Source: Verrucomicrobiota bacterium (GTDB lineage Bacteria; Verrucomicrobiota; Verrucomicrobiia; Limisphaerales; UBA1096). From it: a stretch of DNA of 64,000 bases. Positions 45,978 through 63,894 of this stretch are shown piece after piece. The first letter of the stretch is position 1. The number at the start of each line of letters is the position of its first letter. Under the pieces are notes generated by a model. That model did not search any database. It had not been told where the DNA came from and worked only from the letters and a program-made list of their open reading frames with translations. Both the position numbers and the translations under genes were made by a program. The stretch spans positions 47 to 64,046 of the forward strand of contig JAYZHR010000137.1 in assembly GCA_036166355.1 (NCBI GenBank), in the 5' to 3' direction.

Positions 45978-46191
45978 TTTCAATATTGAGATTATTTTGA
46001 CAGGAGGGTGTTTGTTAAAAAATTTAATTATTCTATTTTGTAATAAGTGGCTTAGGTGGGGCTTGCTTTTATTGAGCTTGAGAGTAGAAAGTGGCTGACC
46101 CCTTGATTTGTGCATCGCCTGCTTGTGCTTGAGATTGGTTATATGCCTAGGCTGGTCATTTGAATTTGTTTCAATCTTTGAATTAATAGAA

Positions 46192-46917
46192 ATGAATAAG
46201 ACAAAGTATAGTCGAGGTTTTACATTGATCGAGCTTTTGGTTGTAATAGCAATTATAGCTATCCTTGCTGGCCTTTTATTAACTGCATTATCAAAAGCAA
46301 AAGCCAGGGCGCATGCCACTTCTTGTATGAATAATCTTAAGCAGGTAGGCCTAGGTATGCTGATGCATGCGGATGATAAAGATGATATGATTCCAAGGGG
46401 TAATGCTAAGCGTTGGTGGTTTGAGTTTATGCCTTATATTCCAGAAGGTGGTACAGAAACAGATTTTCGCAACATTAAGATTTTTATGTGTGCTAGTTAT
46501 CCCATACCAAAGCGAACCCCAAATCGGAGGCAGGTAATAACCTATGTTGTAAATGCTTGGAAGTTTCGTTCGGTTAGTGACTATTTAGGATACGAACATA
46601 TGGGGTTAAGCAAAATTACGGATTTTAACTCACCAACAGATTCTGCCTATTTGTTAGACAATGAAGATGGCATTACTAATCCGGGGATCAATAGACCTAT
46701 TATCACGGGATTTGCGGATATGAGAACAGATCTGAATGATGTTTGGGCGCCTAGTCATTTACCTTATGGCTCGAGTGGAAAGCGATTAAGCTCAGATCGT
46801 CGTATTGCTGCCAACCGACATAGTGAAGGTTCAAATATCTTGTTCCTCGATGGACATGTTGGGTTTCGAAAGGCGAATATGATTGATATCGATTTGTTCC
46901 GGGAAAAGAAACCGTAA
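46192..46917 (+). CDS. prepilin-type N-terminal cleavage/methylation protein with HX9DG motif (DUF1559-like), tandem paralog 1
   Basis: MNKTKYSRG|[21 protein letters not shown] and C-terminal [14 protein letters not shown] (H-x9-DG). The track ORF start 46108 adds an implausible N-terminal extension. Confidence 0.85.
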
Positions 46918-46925
46918 AAAAGCTT

Positions 46926-47645
46926 ATGTTTGTTTGGAGTAAAAAATCAATTCAAGGATTTACTCTTATCGAACTACTTGTGGTGATAGCCATAATTGCA
47001 ATACTTGCTGGGCTTTTATTGCCGGCTCTTGCTAAGGCCAAAGAAAAGGGGCGTGCCACGATTTGCATGAATAATCTGAAGCAAGTTGGTTTAGCAACTA
47101 TTCTTCATGCTGATGATAATGATGATATGATTCCTCGAGGAGATGCAGAGAGATGGTATTTGGTTTTGATGAAGTATTTACCTGAAGGAGGAACAAAAAA
47201 AGATTATCGAAATATTAAGATTTTTAGATGTCCAAGTTATCCTAAACCAAAGAAGAGGCAAAAACCTCAGGTCATCACTTATACCGTTAATGCCTGGCGA
47301 TTTAGAAGTACTTACGATACAGTCGGATATCAGCAGGTTGGTCCTAGTAAGATCACTAATTTTAAGGAACCGTCCAATTCGGTTTATGTTGGCGATAGTT
47401 CGTTTGGGTCGTGGCGACCTATTATTACTGGTTTGAATGATCCGAACAACAACACTTGGTTGAACGATGTTTGGAGGCCAAGTCATCTTCCTTTTGGCCC
47501 AACCGGAAAAGTTTTAAGTATGGACCGTCGCATTGCGGCTAAGCGCCACAATAATGGTGCTAATCTAGTATATCTAGATGGCCATGCTGGTTTCCTTAAA
47601 AGCAACCAAATAACTATCGACCTTTTTCGTGAGAAAAAGCCATAA
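46926..47645 (+). CDS. prepilin-type N-terminal cleavage/methylation protein with HX9DG motif (DUF1559-like), tandem paralog 2
   Basis: SIQG|[24 protein letters not shown] and [14 protein letters not shown]. It is collinear with the preceding gene over its full length, including the identical C-terminus IDLFREKKP. Confidence 0.85.
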
Positions 47646-54510: not shown

Positions 54511-54626
54511 GAAAATTAAAATCTAGCTGCTTGAGCGTAGGTCAAGGCTAAAGGCAGTGCAAGGACTGCGAATTGGGAGATTTCGCTGGTCGAGATGATA
54601 AAGTCCGTATAAAGGATGCACGGCTA

Positions 54627-56162
54627 ATGTTAGGAAATTTCAGCCGAATTTTAATTTGCCTCCTCATTTTTTTTGGAGTTTACGCAAAAGCTGCTCCAGA
54701 GCTGCCTCTGTGGGCGGCGGCGAGTTGGCGTAATGATGTGCAAACAGTTAAGGCTCACATCATAGCTGGCACTGATGTAGAAACCATTGATGATTGGACT
54801 GGCAAAACGGCCATGCACTACGCTGCTGAATACGGCAACTTAGAGATTGCACAACTTCTTATCGATGCTGGGGCAAATATTCAACATCGTGATTTTGATA
54901 AGGCTACAGCATTGCATCATGCCGCGATCGGGGGATTCGTTGATGTTGTTAAATTATTGTTGGTTCATGGAGCTGATATAAATGCGAAAGACAAATCAGG
55001 TGAGACTGCTATGGATGGCGTAGCATTTTTTGGACATACTAATGTTGCTGATTTACTTAAGAGTTATTACGGCATCATACATTATGATTTGGATAATCAA
55101 TTTAAGTTGGAGGCTACGGCTTTGGCTCCTGGTTGGTACGGTTTTTTGAACAAGAAAATGAAAATTGAGCCGAGGAAGTTTCAAATTCTTTCGTCAGAAA
55201 ATTTAATCAATTGGCGCGTAATAAAGATTTTGGATTTCACGTCTGATAAACTAGTCTTTAAGGATACTAATACTAGTAAGTACAGACAAAGATTTTACCG
55301 AATGATGCCATTTACCCAACCTCCGCCAAAGAATATAAACCGGATTGATATAAAATATGATTATTATGAAGCAAAACCTATTAATGGTATTCTTGATGGT
55401 GTTCCAAGTGAATGGTTGACGAGTGAAATGATTGCCAATCCAGGATTTGAAGTTGTCGATGAGAATCAGCGTGGGAAGTCCAATTATATTGCAGGTGAAA
55501 CTACGTATTCTCAATTCGCCGAATTTAATGAAGGTAAATGGGAAGGGGATAATGATCATGGTATAAAATTAGGGATCGGATGGAGAGCGACAGGCCTGCA
55601 TCTTACATTAGTGGTTGAAGATGATCAGCATGTGCATTTTGGTAAGTCTGCAGATGAAGGTGATGCCGTGAAGATTCTTTTTACTAATGCAGGTCGAAAT
55701 GAGGTGCTTGGCGAGTTTGTTTTTGCTTTTTCCTACGATGCTTTCTTAAAGGATCCGGATTGGAAGATGGTTAACGACATGTCCTATGATAAGAAAATGC
55801 TTTCAAGTCCTGGATTCGTTCCTCCAATCGGATATATGGAGCAACTCCAAGGTGATGCCGAATTTGATGTCGTAATGCGTAGAAATCAAAAAACGATTGA
55901 TCCTGCTACTGGTGATCCTGCCACCGGTACGACTGTGTATGAGTTTTGGTTTGCGCCTGAAACAGTGGGGGTATCAAGCCTTGAAGAAGATGTATCTTTT
56001 GGTTTGGGTGTTGCGGTGATTGATAGTGATCTGGATGCGCCAGGGATTAAAGGTTGGTCTGGTTGGGGACCGGAAAGTGTGCTTTTTGAAGCTAAACCTT
56101 CGGAGGCAGCTACCATTATTCTGGTTGACGAACCTGAAAATACAGATGGTGGAGGTCAATAA
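54627..56162 (+). CDS. secreted ankyrin-repeat protein with C-terminal carbohydrate-binding (CBM9/DOMON-like) region
   Basis: Signal peptide MLGNFSRILICLLIFFGVYAKA (ATG 54627; the track start is a TTG at 54573). Three ankyrin repeats are present (TAMHYAAEYGNLEIAQLLIDAGANI, TALHHAAIGGFVDVVKLLLVHGADINAKD). The C-terminal GIGWRATGLHLTLVVEDD...GDAVKILF...FGLGVAVIDSD segment is CBM9-like. Confidence 0.55.
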   Translation: MLGNFSRILICLLIFFGVYAKAAPELPLWAAASWRNDVQTVKAHIIAGTDVETIDDWTGKTAMHYAAEYGNLEIAQLLIDAGANIQHRDFDKATALHHAAIGGFVDVVKLLLVHGADINAKDKSGETAMDGVAFFGHTNVADLLKSYYGIIHYDLDNQFKLEATALAPGWYGFLNKKMKIEPRKFQILSSENLINWRVIKILDFTSDKLVFKDTNTSKYRQRFYRMMPFTQPPPKNINRIDIKYDYYEAKPINGILDGVPSEWLTSEMIANPGFEVVDENQRGKSNYIAGETTYSQFAEFNEGKWEGDNDHGIKLGIGWRATGLHLTLVVEDDQHVHFGKSADEGDAVKILFTNAGRNEVLGEFVFAFSYDAFLKDPDWKMVNDMSYDKKMLSSPGFVPPIGYMEQLQGDAEFDVVMRRNQKTIDPATGDPATGTTVYEFWFAPETVGVSSLEEDVSFGLGVAVIDSDLDAPGIKGWSGWGPESVLFEAKPSEAATIILVDEPENTDGGGQ

Positions 56163-56201
56163 AACTGTGTATTTGGCTCAGTTCTTATAATTAAAAACCC
56201 A

Positions 56202-56230
56202 TTGACTTGATTATAGCTGACCGCTAGTTT
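56202..56230 (+). promoter_or_regulatory. candidate sigma70-type promoter of the leuA leader
   Basis: TTGACT (56202-56207), a 17-bp spacer, then TAGTTT (56225-56230), lying 8 nt upstream of the leader ATG. Confidence 0.3.
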
Positions 56231-56238
56231 GCGCCGCG

Positions 56239-56313
56239 ATGGTAATCGTGAGACTACGACTCTTGTTGCTGGGACTGGCGCTTTTAGGAGGCGCACGGGC
56301 AGTCGAGGTTTGA
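56239..56313 (+). CDS. leucine-rich leader peptide (24 aa) of a leuA transcription attenuator
   Basis: ATG GTA ATC GTG AGA CTA CGA CTC TTG TTG CTG GGA CTG GCG CTT TTA GGA GGC GCA CGG GCA GTC GAG GTT TGA translates to MVIVRLRLLLLGLALLGGARAVEV. It has 8 Leu in 24 residues, 4 of them consecutive, and all six Leu codons are used. A terminator follows and leuA lies immediately downstream. Confidence 0.6.
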   Translation: MVIVRLRLLLLGLALLGGARAVEV

Positions 56314-56347
56314 GCTAGTGTTCATGATTTTGTAAACCCCGATGCCC
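56297..56347 (+). promoter_or_regulatory. candidate antiterminator helix of the leuA attenuator
   Basis: GGGCAGTCGAGGTTT (56297-56311, the end of the leader ORF including the first base of its stop) can pair with AAACCCCGATGCCC (56334-56347). That gives 13 bp with one bulge and one mismatch. The pairing sequesters the 5' arm of the terminator. Confidence 0.45.
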
Positions 56348-56368
56348 AATAAGGCGCCGGGGTTTTTT
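56334..56368 (+). terminator. rho-independent terminator (attenuator) between the leader peptide and leuA
   Basis: Stem AAACCCCG (56334-56341) / CGGGGTTT (58-65), with an inner GCC/GGC helix (56344-46 / 56353-55). A T6 run follows at 56363-56368, 28 nt before the leuA ATG. Confidence 0.7.
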
Positions 56369-56395
56369 GTTAACCGCTATATATTCAACAAAGAT

Positions 56396-57985
56396 ATGAA
56401 AAAGAATCGAATCATCATTTTTGATACGACACTTCGCGATGGCGAACAGTGTCCCGGTGCTTCTATGACGCTACGAGAGAAACTTGAGGTAGCACGTCAA
56501 CTAGCGCGTCTTAAAGTTGATGTTATTGAGGGCGGTTTTCCTGTGATTAGTGAGGGAGATTTCACTGCAGTCAATACCATCGCTAAAGAAATTAAGGGGC
56601 CGACTATTGCGGGTTTGGCCCGATGTGTTCCTAAGGATATTGAAGCTGCGGGTAAGGCAGTGGCTCCTGCTGGTAGCAAGGGGCGTATTCACGTTTTTTT
56701 GGCTACTTCTAAGTTGCATCGTGAATTCAAGCTTGGAAAGGCGCAGAGTCAAATCATTAAGCTTGCAGTTGAAGGTGTTAAGCGAGCTCGTAAGCTTGTT
56801 GATGACGTTGAGTTTTCTCCCGAAGATGGTTCGAGAACCGAGCCGGATTTTCTTGCAGAGGTTTGTCAAGCTGTGGTGGATGCCGGGGCCACCACGGTTA
56901 ATATTCCTGATACGGTTGGGTGGGCAGTGCCTGGACAATTTGGTGAACTAATTGGTCATCTTAACTCTTCTGTTCCAGAGTTTAAATCTGGTAAAGCTAT
57001 TATTAGTGTTCATTGTCATAATGATCTTGGTATGGCGGTTGCTAATTCTTTAGCCGCTATTGAGAATGGAGCGCGTCAAATCGAGTGTACTGTAAATGGA
57101 ATCGGTGAACGTGCTGGTAATGCTGCACTCGAAGAGTTAGTCATGGCTTTAAAAACTAGAGAGGATTATTATAAGAACCTTAAGTGCGGAATTAAAACTA
57201 ACGAGATTGTTAAATCGTCTAGACTAGTTTCGCGTATGAGTAGTTTTGTTGTTCAGCGAAACAAAGCGATTGTTGGAGAGAATGCCTTTGCGCATTCTAG
57301 TGGCATTCATCAGGATGGGATCATCAAGAAGCGTGAAACTTATGAGATTATGGATCCACAGGATGTTGGCTGGGGTCAGACTGAATTGCCATTGACCAAA
57401 CATAGTGGAAGGGCTGCTATGGCCATGCGACTTAAACACCTTGGATTCAAGCTTACTGATGATGAAATTATTAATGTGTTTGGTCGTTTCAAGGAAATAG
57501 GTGACAAAAAGAAATTTGTTTATGACGACGATCTTAGCGCATTAGTTGATGGTCAGATAACTAAGGTGCCAGAGACCTGGTTAATGGAGTATGTAAACGT
57601 TACAAGTGGAAACCAGACTGTGCCAACGGCAACTGTTCGCTTGCGAAAGGCTGCTTCCGGAAGAGCCAAAAAAGATGTAGTTCTAGAGGATGCTGGTGTC
57701 GGTGATGGTCCGGTTGATGCTGCCCTTAAGGCAATCGATCGCCTTACAGAAACTCATGGCAGGTTGAAAGATTATGCACTGCGAGGTGTATCTCAAGGCA
57801 AGGACGCTCTAGGTGAAGTTAGCCTTAAGGTGGATTTTGGCGATGGAGAACTAATTAACGGAAAAGGTGCTAGTACTGATGTAATTGAGGCTAGCGCAAA
57901 GGCATATCTAAATGCTGTTAATCGATACTTAAGCAATAAAAGGCGAAAGAAGACTGCAAAGAAAAAAGCCAAGGGCCAGCCATGA
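56396..57985 (+). CDS. leuA: 2-isopropylmalate synthase
   Basis: MKKNRIIIFDTTLRDGEQ, HCHNDLGMAVANSLAA, GERAGNAALEE, HSSGIHQDG and a C-terminal LeuA allosteric domain. The track start 56342 lies inside the terminator hairpin, so ATG 56396 is preferred. Confidence 0.9.
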   Translation: MKKNRIIIFDTTLRDGEQCPGASMTLREKLEVARQLARLKVDVIEGGFPVISEGDFTAVNTIAKEIKGPTIAGLARCVPKDIEAAGKAVAPAGSKGRIHVFLATSKLHREFKLGKAQSQIIKLAVEGVKRARKLVDDVEFSPEDGSRTEPDFLAEVCQAVVDAGATTVNIPDTVGWAVPGQFGELIGHLNSSVPEFKSGKAIISVHCHNDLGMAVANSLAAIENGARQIECTVNGIGERAGNAALEELVMALKTREDYYKNLKCGIKTNEIVKSSRLVSRMSSFVVQRNKAIVGENAFAHSSGIHQDGIIKKRETYEIMDPQDVGWGQTELPLTKHSGRAAMAMRLKHLGFKLTDDEIINVFGRFKEIGDKKKFVYDDDLSALVDGQITKVPETWLMEYVNVTSGNQTVPTATVRLRKAASGRAKKDVVLEDAGVGDGPVDAALKAIDRLTETHGRLKDYALRGVSQGKDALGEVSLKVDFGDGELINGKGASTDVIEASAKAYLNAVNRYLSNKRRKKTAKKKAKGQP

Positions 57986-58030
57986 TGATTACTTCGCTAA
58001 AGCCTTGCTTAATTTCGTTTAAATAGAAAC

Positions 58031-60061
58031 CTATCCGTATGGATCGAAGCTTTGAAGGTTCCATTCTTCGACGAGAACATTTCCAATTTCGTTAATGAAT
58101 CGGGAAGGCTGTTGAAATGTTTCACCTCCAGATCCGTGCATAAAGCGCATTAATGGATAACTGAGATACAGTTCTGTTTTTGCTCGGGTGACTGCTACAT
58201 AGAATAATCGCCTTTCTTCTTCTTCACCCTCAGGGCTTTCTATTGCTCTTTTAGATGGAAATAGTCCATCGCATAGCATCATTACAAATACTACTTCAAA
58301 TTCTAGACCTTTGGCTTGATGGATAGTGGATAAGCGAATTTGTTCGGGATCTGATTGGGTATCACGGTTTGCCTCACTGTCTAAATTACTTAGAAGAGCC
58401 AGTTCACTGAGGAATTCTTCTGTTGTTTCATACTGGTCTGCGAAGCCAGCGACCTGTTCGAGATCTTCGAGTCGTGAATAGTAGTTTGGAAACTTGTTTT
58501 GAAGATAATCCTCGTAGCCAGCAGCTACCACCAAGCGGATTAGGTGTCCTGGTCCTTTATTTTGTCCATCTTCTAGTTGAGAGACGTTTTCTGCAAATTG
58601 TTCCCACTCTGATATGGCTTTTTTGGGAACAGACCTAGTGAGTTCTTGTATTATTTTAGCTAAGTCAGGTTTCAGGGTAATCTCGTCTTCCAATGCAGCT
58701 TTGTATAATTTCCATAGTTTATCTGCAGACTTGATTCCTATTCCTGGAAGCATAAGGACAATGCGCTTAAATGCCATTTCGTCTTTCTGATTGGAAACTA
58801 CTTTAAGGTAGGCGGCTACGTCCTTAATGTGAGATTGTTCGAAAAATCTTATACCGCTTGTGATTGTAAAGGGGATGTTGCGCCGTGTGAATTCAAGCTG
58901 TAACTCGAGTGCATGAAAGTGAGATCTGTATAACACTACCATATTTTCTAGAAGTATTCCTTCATCACGTAGTTCAAGTGCCCGCTGGGCAATGAATTCA
59001 GCCTGTTGATTGGCATCATTACATGAGACTAGTGCTGGTTTCATCCCGTTTTTTTTCACTGGTGTAAGTTTTTTCTCAAACTGCTGGGGATTTCCAGCGA
59101 TTACAGCATTTGCACAATTAAGAATTTCTGGAGTGCTGCGGTAGTTTGTTTCAATCTTGAAAACTTGTGTGCCTTCGTGACGTTCAGGGAATTCAAGGAT
59201 ATTACGGTAGTTAGCACCTCGCCATGAATAGATACTTTGTGAATCATCGCCTACAGCCATGATATTATGGTGTCGATTTCCAAGTTGATCGATTAATTCA
59301 CACTGTACTTGATTTGTGTCTTGATATTCATCAACAAGAATAAATTGAAATTTAGTTTGAAAATAATCTCGAGCTTCATTGTTTTCACGAAGCAGTCTTA
59401 ACCATTGGTTGAGTAGGTCATCGAAGTCCATTACTCCGTTTGATTTTTTGCGCTTTGAGTATGCATCGTGAACCTTGGCAATGTCTTCGGTTAAGTTTTC
59501 GAAATAAAAGTATCGTTCTTGCATTACCCTCTCAAGATTCATCCCTGTATTAATTGACATAGATAGAATGTCACATAGCAAGTCTGGCTTTGGAAATCGT
59601 GTTGCTTTGGTGTCTATTTCAGCATCAGTGCAGGCCATGCTCATTAGGTCTTTGGCATCCTCACGGTCCATTATAGTAAATGTTGATGGGTATCCAATCA
59701 CCTCCGCGTTACGTCGTAAAATACGGTGTCCAACCGAGTGGAATGTGCCGCCCCAAAGACTAGATGTATCACCACCGATCAAGTCTTGAACACGTTCCAT
59801 CATTTCTTTTGCAGCTTTATTAGTGAATGTCAAAAGAAGGATGCGATCAATCGGGATGCCTTGTTCTAGTAGATATGCCACACGATAAGTCAGGGTTCGG
59901 GTTTTGCCGGCTCCAGCTCCAGCCAAAACCAAAGCCGGCCCTGGCGTAGCCGTTACAGCGGCAAGTTGCTGGGCGTTTAGTTCCGATTCGTAATCGATAT
60001 TTAGTTCGATCGATGAACGGAATGGCTTAATATTGTACTCTTTAGGCACGTGCAAATTCAA
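58031..60061 (-). CDS. UvrD/PcrA/Rep-family ATP-dependent DNA helicase
   Basis: LNAQQLAAV, AGAGAGKTRTLTYRVAYLL (Walker A), ILVDEYQDTN, the NYRS segment, TIHQAKGLEF and YVAVTRAK helicase motifs. TTG start. Confidence 0.85.
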   Translation of the reverse strand: MNLHVPKEYNIKPFRSSIELNIDYESELNAQQLAAVTATPGPALVLAGAGAGKTRTLTYRVAYLLEQGIPIDRILLLTFTNKAAKEMMERVQDLIGGDTSSLWGGTFHSVGHRILRRNAEVIGYPSTFTIMDREDAKDLMSMACTDAEIDTKATRFPKPDLLCDILSMSINTGMNLERVMQERYFYFENLTEDIAKVHDAYSKRKKSNGVMDFDDLLNQWLRLLRENNEARDYFQTKFQFILVDEYQDTNQVQCELIDQLGNRHHNIMAVGDDSQSIYSWRGANYRNILEFPERHEGTQVFKIETNYRSTPEILNCANAVIAGNPQQFEKKLTPVKKNGMKPALVSCNDANQQAEFIAQRALELRDEGILLENMVVLYRSHFHALELQLEFTRRNIPFTITSGIRFFEQSHIKDVAAYLKVVSNQKDEMAFKRIVLMLPGIGIKSADKLWKLYKAALEDEITLKPDLAKIIQELTRSVPKKAISEWEQFAENVSQLEDGQNKGPGHLIRLVVAAGYEDYLQNKFPNYYSRLEDLEQVAGFADQYETTEEFLSELALLSNLDSEANRDTQSDPEQIRLSTIHQAKGLEFEVVFVMMLCDGLFPSKRAIESPEGEEEERRLFYVAVTRAKTELYLSYPLMRFMHGSGGETFQQPSRFINEIGNVLVEEWNLQSFDPYG

Positions 60062-61577: not shown

Positions 61578-61691
61578 GTGCGAGATAATACGCGTTATAC
61601 CGGTGCTTGGCCAAGCGGCATTTTAAATTCTAACATTTCTCCATTTTTCTCTCTCGTTCTTTATACGAAGCCGTGAAAAACTCGTCCAAGC

Positions 61692-63807: not shown

Positions 63808-63894
63808 TGGTGCACTCGAAAGGACTCGAACCTTCACGCCTTTAGGGGCACAACCACCTCAAGGTTGCGTGTCTACCAATTCCACCACGAGTGC
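63808..63894 (-). tRNA. tRNA-Leu (anticodon GAG), type II with long variable arm, CCA encoded
   Basis: The reverse complement reads GCACTCG-TG-GTG-GAATTGGTAGA-CAC-G-CAACC-TTGAGGT-GGTTG-TGCCCCTAAAGGCGTG-GAAGG-TTCGAGT-CCTTT-CGAGTGC-A-CCA. It has a 7-bp acceptor stem, a GGTTCGAGTCC T-arm and an anticodon loop TT-GAG-GT. Confidence 0.9.

Follow-up and report, generated by a model that had tools for sequence, protein, structure and literature searches.

The leuA gene of a Verrucomicrobiota bacterium, which encodes 2-isopropylmalate synthase, is very probably controlled by charged tRNALeu through a classical ribosome-mediated leader-peptide transcription attenuator. The gene lies in a 64,000-nucleotide stretch of contig JAYZHR010000137.1 (GenBank assembly GCA_036166355.1, positions 47 to 64,046 of the forward strand), referred to here in its entirety as the window. 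The gap upstream of leuA measures 233 base pairs (bp) and holds a promoter, a 24-codon open reading frame (ORF) rich in leucine codons, and an intrinsic terminator. Four RNA segments, regions 1 to 4, can pair as 1:2 (anti-antiterminator), 2:3 (antiterminator), or 3:4 (terminator). From these features and their conservation in relatives, we infer the transcription start site, the translation of the leader ORF, and the response to leucine.

Driven by a conserved TTGAC-17-TAnnnT promoter, transcription would begin at the leader start codon or a few nucleotides (nt) from it, and the RNA on which the Leu-rich ORF is translated would be leaderless or nearly so. With leucine in good supply, the ribosome is expected to reach the stop codon and cover region 2, allowing the 3:4 hairpin and its U-tract to form and ending transcription before leuA. 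Should Leu-tRNA become scarce, the ribosome would stall at the Leu codons, keeping region 1 single-stranded and region 2 free. Region 2 could then pair with region 3 as soon as the latter is made, no terminator would arise, and RNA polymerase would read into leuA. If the leader is not translated at all, 1:2 would pair and the terminator would form (coordinates in Table 1).

Relatives of the element were collected by two scans. One was based on LeuA and took one genome per species, while the other, of metagenomes, was anchored only on GGGGTTTT at 40–70 nt before the conserved leuA N-terminal codons. The metagenome scan returned 120 loci (L081–L200), and a Leu-rich upstream ORF (uORF) precedes the terminator in nearly all of them. 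The closest LeuA relatives belong to metagenome-assembled genomes (MAGs) of Verrucomicrobiota: L001 (Verrucomicrobia bacterium UBA673, listed in NCBI as unclassified Verrucomicrobiota) at 85% identity and L002–L007 at 74–77%. A preliminary description, prepared from the DNA letters alone, had spoken of a PVC-type (Planctomycetes, Verrucomicrobia, Chlamydiae) genome; the genome is indeed verrucomicrobial, and the generic label is too broad. In L001 and L003–L007, a leader ORF and terminator of recognisable homology stand immediately 5′ of leuA. Thirty-nine distinct members, picked by a regular expression on region 2, were aligned with MAFFT (alignment A1), to which the family counts below refer unless stated otherwise. 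Alignment A2 adds six sequences missed by that expression (five members detected by nhmmer and the weakly matching L184) as a check on selection bias.

A short Leu-rich ORF stands upstream of leuA, as in classical leader-peptide attenuators. It reads in the window as the preliminary description had it, with eight Leu codons (CTA, CTC, TTG, TTG, CTG, CTG, CTT, and TTA), four of them consecutive and all six codon types present. When the gap is shuffled with its dinucleotides preserved, one of 5000 shuffles yields an ATG-initiated ORF of 10–40 codons with at least eight Leu and a run of at least four. Much stronger than this shuffle test is the comparative evidence. The stop codon occupies a single alignment column in 39/39 members, even as TGA, TAA, and TAG all occur there, and an uninterrupted ORF of 22–24 codons with an ATG or GTG start is found in 38/39. 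Leucine makes up 31% of in-frame residues, compared with 0.9–7.7% in the other five frames. Counted from the stop, it is the commonest residue at ten codons (−19, −17 to −12, and −10 to −8), being present at codons −10 and −9 in 36/39 members each, at −15 in 32/39, and at −14 in 29/39. The family's Leu codons vary synonymously (CTG 154, TTG 39, CTT 32, CTC 20, CTA 19, TTA 1). Residues other than Leu vary freely, save in the last five codons (R/x-A-A/V-V-G/E/V-V/C), which coincide with region 2.

The terminator hairpin with six T residues that had been placed at 56334–56368 is confirmed, its stem (56334–56346/56353–56365) having 12 pairs, one 1×1 mismatch, and a predicted energy of −18.8 kcal/mol. 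The alternative helix proposed alongside it can likewise be read from the sequence, with 12 pairs instead of the 13 bp claimed, which is close enough. It joins 56297–56310 to 56335–56347 in blocks of 5, 3, and 4 pairs, with one bulge, one mismatch, and a duplex energy of −19.9 kcal/mol. Helix 1:2, which the preliminary description did not mention, connects the L-R/Q-L codons (consensus CGACTGCT) to the last leader codons, that is, to region 2, and the window segment 56250–56313 folds at −21.0 kcal/mol. Between regions 1 and 2 the window folds contain a further small hairpin, and GC-rich hairpins resembling it are visible by eye in other members.

Pairing in the family was counted on the structure-blind MAFFT alignment, with slid registers and 500 column shuffles as controls. 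For the terminator (A1 columns 124–136/146–158), 93.5% of cells are paired against 37–59% in the slid controls. The antiterminator (columns 85–90 and 92–95/126–136) reaches 88.5% against 32–77%, and the anti-antiterminator (columns 44–45 and 49–54/85–92) 87.8% against 23–56%. Compensatory exchange is apparent in each helix. Terminator pair 131–151 is AU in 27 members and GC in 12. In the antiterminator, pair 88–133 is AU in 17, GU in 13, and GC in nine, never unpaired, and pair 90–131 is UA in 26, UG in seven, and CG in five, with one unpaired. The 1:2 pair 45–91 is AU in 14, GC in 13, and GU in eight, with four unpaired. Not one of the 500 column shuffles matches the observed percentage of paired cells for any of the three helices. 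The covariation score is likewise matched by none for the terminator and antiterminator and by two for 1:2. Adding the six further members (A2) leaves the picture unchanged, with 88.3% paired for 2:3, 84.5% for 1:2, and 18 of 500 shuffles matching the covariation score of 1:2.

The RNAalifold consensus consists of the terminator and a 2-bp stub only; the alternative helices could be counted only by specifying them explicitly. In its lower part, 2:3 shifts register slightly by subclade: the window and L157 pair GGTTT with AAACC, most other members GGGT with ACCC. The intrinsic terminator between leader ORF and leuA is both conserved and covarying, and the anti-antiterminator overlaps the regulatory codons, though 1:2 is weak in the window itself. 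The three helices are mutually exclusive, and with 1:2 the classical four-region design is complete. The preliminary description had treated a lack of conservation of the Leu-rich ORF and hairpins in related genomes as fatal to its model; they are conserved, with covarying helices, in 38–44 related sequences.

How the leader might behave as a switch was addressed by folding. The minimum free energy of window positions 56230–56400 differs from that of shuffles by z = −1.5, insignificant alone. Folding of full leaders did not discriminate and was replaced by folding of nascent RNA that ends before region 4, with the ribosome represented by a mask of about 29 nt, in the 39 members. In unmasked nascent RNA, 1:2 sequesters region 2 with a mean of 7.7 expected pairs, and at least five pairs form in 30/39 members. 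With the mask set so that a conserved Leu codon occupies the A site, at least 6 bp of 2:3 form in 39/39 members (column 50) or 36/39 (column 56), and with the mask at the stop codon 2:3 is abolished in all 39. The ribosome logic of the preliminary description, in which a ribosome at the stop masks region 2 and a stall at Leu codons frees the antiterminator, is therefore borne out in these predictions. In the folding model, the antiterminator and terminator exclude one another, and the upstream strand of the antiterminator would be masked by a ribosome at the stop codon, as in a classical attenuator.

Mean family duplex energies are −13.8 kcal/mol for 1:2, −17.1 for 2:3 (−10.0 when region 2 is shuffled), and −22.4 for 3:4; the window's own values are −11.3, −15.1, and −19.1, respectively. 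This order of stability, 3:4 > 2:3 ≥ 1:2, resembles that of the Escherichia coli trp attenuator. The trp system also shares the 1:2, 2:3, 3:4 layout and a stop codon at the edge of region 2; it differs in the amino acid sensed, in sequence, and in the normal ribosome-binding site of its leader.

Table 1. Features of the leuA leader and its surroundings, in window coordinates.
Feature	Position	Strand	Basis
A-rich tract 5′ of −35 (UP-element-like; putative role)	56193..56197	+	AAAAA-type tract before TTGAC in most of 39 members
−35 hexamer TTGACT	56202..56207	+	TTGAC in 39/39 members, at a fixed distance to the leader start codon
−10-like hexamer TAGTTT (17-nt spacer; 8 nt before ATG)	56225..56230	+	
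Leader ORF, 24 codons + TGA, encoding MVIVRLRLLLLGLALLGGARAVEV	56239..56313 (ATG 56239, TGA 56311–56313)	+	
Region 1, pairs with region 2 (anti-antiterminator, possibly pause hairpin)	56251..56266	+	Family pairing; window fold
Regulatory Leu codons (codons 6, 8–11, 13, 15, 16)	56254..56286	+	Leu conservation in the family
Small internal hairpin GCGCUUU/GAGGCGC between regions 1 and 2	56278..56294	+	Predicted in window folds
Region 2, final five codons of the leader; partner of region 1 or region 3	56297..56311	+	
Region 3, 5′ arm of the terminator; partner of region 2 (antiterminator) or region 4 (terminator)	56334..56347	+	
Region 4, terminator 3′ arm (56353–56365) and T6 (56363–56368)	56353..56368	+	
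leuA (2-isopropylmalate synthase), regulated gene, start corrected	56396..57985	+	Homologue alignment; NCBIfam
Gene for a 529-amino-acid protein upstream of the attenuator, ankyrin repeats near N-terminus	54573–56162	+	Weak NCBIfam Ank matches
PcrA/UvrD-like helicase gene, next after leuA	58031–60061	Opposite (convergent)	

The putative promoter, TTGACT and TAGTTT separated by 17 bp, stands where the preliminary description had placed it and is conserved in the family. TTGAC with an A-rich tract before it occurs in 39/39 members, and a hexamer starting with TA follows 16–18 nt past TTGAC in 38/39. A scanner for consensus promoters and terminators flags neither this promoter, whose TAGTTT matches TATAAT at 3/6 positions, nor the terminator, with its stem mismatch, and is uninformative here. 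Only 6–10 nt separate the −10 hexamer from the leader ATG or GTG across the family. Such spacing is too tight for a Shine-Dalgarno sequence, and transcription is expected to start on the start codon or only a few nucleotides away, so that the leader ORF is probably leaderless or nearly so.

An RNA switch of this kind could also be real and yet take its signal from some protein, tRNA, or small molecule, with the ORF incidental or only modulatory. Helices would covary under any antitermination mechanism, the Leu codons of some members are rather few, and mutants of the Streptomyces coelicolor leuA leader have been reported to be inconsistent with strict classical attenuation (PMC1262725). Such a factor-set switch is nevertheless improbable: the stop column is fixed as the identity of the stop varies, the ORF length is held at 22–24 codons, and Leu is enriched in one frame only. 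Moreover, region 2 is exactly the last five codons, so that the position of the ribosome decides its availability, and neither a T-box nor a riboswitch model of Rfam matches even at E up to 10.

The gene that the attenuator would regulate is leuA itself. Its product passes the NCBIfam 2-isopropylmalate synthase equivalog with 742 bits against a cut-off of 532. The start annotated at 56342, which the preliminary description had doubted, is wrong, and is corrected here to 56396. The ORF opening at 56342 shares its frame with ATG 56396, ATG 56342 falls within the terminator hairpin, and homologues align from residue 1 of ATG 56396, where the N-terminus reads MKKNRIIIFDTTLRDGEQ. Since the helicase gene that follows is encoded on the other strand, leuA forms a monocistronic unit in the window and would be the sole gene controlled.

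With a family profile, nhmmer finds the element in 53 sources at E < 1e-8, the window included, once per locus and always just before leuA. Neither the rest of the window nor the flanking DNA of the relatives' loci holds a second copy that nhmmer detects, and no regulon beyond leuA is visible in the DNA examined. The element of L157 (MDTE01157137.1) equals the window's but for one synonymous base. In the 45 members with an adequate LeuA match, LeuA is about 70–100% identical to the window's, and in loci lacking the element it is at most 69% identical, with three exceptions (L002, L092, and L013). The upstream DNA of L013 is missing. L002 (1942–2143) and L092 (6413–6614), with LeuA 78% identical, carry a different Leu leader (MMDFLIQLLSSRDLLLGRS and MKRIDSILLGLRLLPLCRR, respectively) with its own terminator; in these two, one leader has apparently been exchanged for another inside the clade. 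Judged by these sequence comparisons, the element is inherited vertically, as membership tracks LeuA relatedness. Upstream genes vary between subclades and are sometimes divergent (L093 and L125), which assigns the element to leuA rather than to its upstream neighbour.

These linkage data also bear on the idea that the hairpin and T-run terminate the upstream ankyrin-repeat gene and that the Leu-rich ORF arose by chance. The hairpin does lie on that gene's strand, about 170 nt past its stop, and the gene is kept beside leuA in the marine subclade. Even so, the idea is very unlikely to be correct. A conserved promoter intervenes between the gene and the hairpin, the element stays with leuA where the upstream gene differs or diverges, and the ORF is conserved, with a Leu content and run rarely obtained by shuffling. 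It is just as doubtful that the ORF encodes a functional hydrophobic micropeptide, such as a membrane peptide, and not a sensor of translation speed, for although the peptide is hydrophobic and of conserved length, its residues vary freely apart from Leu and the pairing-constrained last five codons, and in every case the ORF accompanies leuA and overlaps the terminator/antiterminator switch. None of these three explanations accounts for the fixed stop column, the enrichment of Leu in one frame, the internal promoter, and the leuA linkage as well as attenuation does.

Several observations weigh against attenuation in its classical form. Some members have only 4–5 Leu codons, interspersed with Arg. 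The leader ORF of L138 (1673–1814, minus strand) is shortened by an in-frame TAG after MMINDNLQL with all RNA helices kept; the TAG could be a sequencing error, a sign of a decaying copy, or a variant. At equilibrium the complete leader folds into the terminator under every ribosome mask, which means that the switch must be kinetic. The terminator also wins at equilibrium in known attenuators. In the window, 1:2 is weaker than in most members, and 2:3 already competes in free nascent RNA. The sequences represent only a few clades, which probably limits the number of independent compensatory events to 2–4 per helix. Because GGGGTTTT was required by the metagenome scan, that part of the terminator is conserved by construction in L081–L200; L001–L007, found via LeuA alone, also carry it. 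Finally, the similar-looking leuA leader of S. coelicolor did not act as a classical attenuator when mutated (PMC1262725).

Some loci depart from the general pattern. L184 (3447–3588, minus strand), with LeuA only 55% identical, has a leader of very similar design, MNRNLNLLGLLGLLLERQAVG*, with region 2 GGCAGTGGGTT facing AACCCCACTG and a partly similar sequence; the element may be older than the clade of 70% LeuA identity, or it may have been transferred. L188 (718–919, plus strand) lacks the 5′ half of the leader, with its promoter, start codon, and Leu codons. In its place stands the apparent 3′ end of a coding sequence from upstream, which seemingly continues through the final leader codons to their stop (…GRQMGF*); this could be a gene-leader fusion or a chimeric assembly. 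L003 (DATKFW010000071.1) is labelled Candidatus Baltobacteraceae, of another phylum, yet has a LeuA 77% identical and a typical verrucomicrobial leader, which suggests a mis-binned contig or a transfer.

The closest known counterpart is the leu attenuator (leuL) of E. coli and Salmonella, which likewise combines a short Leu-rich ORF with an intrinsic terminator ahead of leuA and builds its antiterminator with the 5′ arm of that terminator. There, too, a stall at Leu codons favours read-through (mechanism summarised in PMC5314783). The verrucomicrobial element differs in several respects. leuA is monocistronic here and is not part of a leuABCD operon. In most members the Leu codons are spread over about 11 codons, unlike the four in a row of E. 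coli, and the probably leaderless ORF leaves no space for a Shine-Dalgarno sequence. Neither its sequence nor its structure matches the Rfam Leu_leader model (RF00512): cmscan of positions 55000–58000, with E allowed up to 10, found neither Leu_leader nor a T-box nor any other relevant family, its only match being a sub-threshold NsiR1, a terminator look-alike. At the Rfam gathering score the whole window yields nothing but a tRNA.

The preliminary description took too narrow a view in holding that such leaders had been described mostly in Proteobacteria. Published examples of Leu leaders ahead of leuA or ilv-leu genes come from Streptococcus (PMC5314783), Staphylococcus aureus (PMC5794164), and Actinobacteria (PMC1262725; PMC5784534), and among the loci scanned here, Leu-rich uORFs stand before leuA in many other phyla. 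The Streptococcus and S. aureus leaders are Leu-rich uORF attenuators that evolved independently, so that the design recurs outside Proteobacteria. They belong to other phyla, are unrelated in sequence, and are partly backed by term-seq and genetics. Actinobacterial leaders (Corynebacterium ilvB and leu) resemble it in placing a Leu-rich leader peptide before leuA and in the leaderless arrangement proposed here; in Corynebacterium diphtheriae, the ilvB leader has been mapped as a leaderless RNA (PMC5784534). The actinobacterial LEU element, however, has been described as a pseudoknot between Leu codons and the leuA Shine-Dalgarno box with no obvious terminator (PMC1262725), and the clear terminator of the verrucomicrobial element speaks for another architecture.

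The scanned loci with a Leu-rich uORF ahead of leuA include Alpha- and Betaproteobacteria, Planctomycetota, and other groups. In Planctomycetota and Sedimentisphaerales, the leuA loci L017, L019, L026, and L029 have uORFs ending in …LLLRR*, for example MGNTCTIRSLLLGLLGLRTLLLRR and MSSNCISPSILEAILGLSNLLLRR. A crude scan of L017 and L026 found no terminator between uORF and leuA, so the read-out there may differ. In the metagenome set (L081–L200), a uORF rich in Leu precedes almost every leuA that has the GGGGTTTT terminator upstream, and at least five other mutually unrelated Leu-leader families occur, including MMNQLSALLLLLALGLRLGAGRA, …AGLALLLLLVLLIPMGGSAI, MRRTDLLALLLLAPGASRS, …LLLGLLLPEPGESS, and …IGILLLEE.

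The verrucomicrobial family, taken with the Leu-rich uORFs of Planctomycetota and many other phyla, would suggest that leader control of leuA is nearly universal and has been repeatedly reinvented. The chances seem about even that this holds and that the present family, in an order-level clade from marine, freshwater, and soil habitats and with a leaderless sensor ORF, is the first leader-peptide attenuator family described in Verrucomicrobiota. A literature search, which did not extend to the broad survey of Lopatovskaya et al. (2010; PubMed 20198868), found no leader-peptide attenuation in this phylum, and an earlier description is possible. The mechanism is a real and ordinary textbook one, with one modestly unusual trait in the probable leaderless sensor ORF. 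Its recognition extends the textbook scheme to a phylum with almost nothing known on gene regulation and leaves the understanding of attenuation itself unchanged. If the leaderless start is true, attenuation would be linked to leaderless translation outside Actinobacteria. About 45 sequences are now aligned, with three helices tested, and this alignment could serve as the seed of an RNA family model.

Elsewhere in the window and its relatives, a few features lie apart from the attenuator. The ankyrin-repeat gene adjoins leuA only in the marine subclade (L001, L084, L095, L099, L119, L131, L137, L163, and L187). Nothing obvious resembling a Trp leader was seen upstream of trpD (61578–61690, minus strand). 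Two tandem paralogous genes on the plus strand (46108–46917 and 46926–47645) encode, as judged by eye from their translations, proteins with a prepilin-type N-terminal motif and similar C-terminal parts; genes with this motif are of a kind expanded in PVC bacteria. A tRNA gene is located at 63811–63894 on the minus strand.

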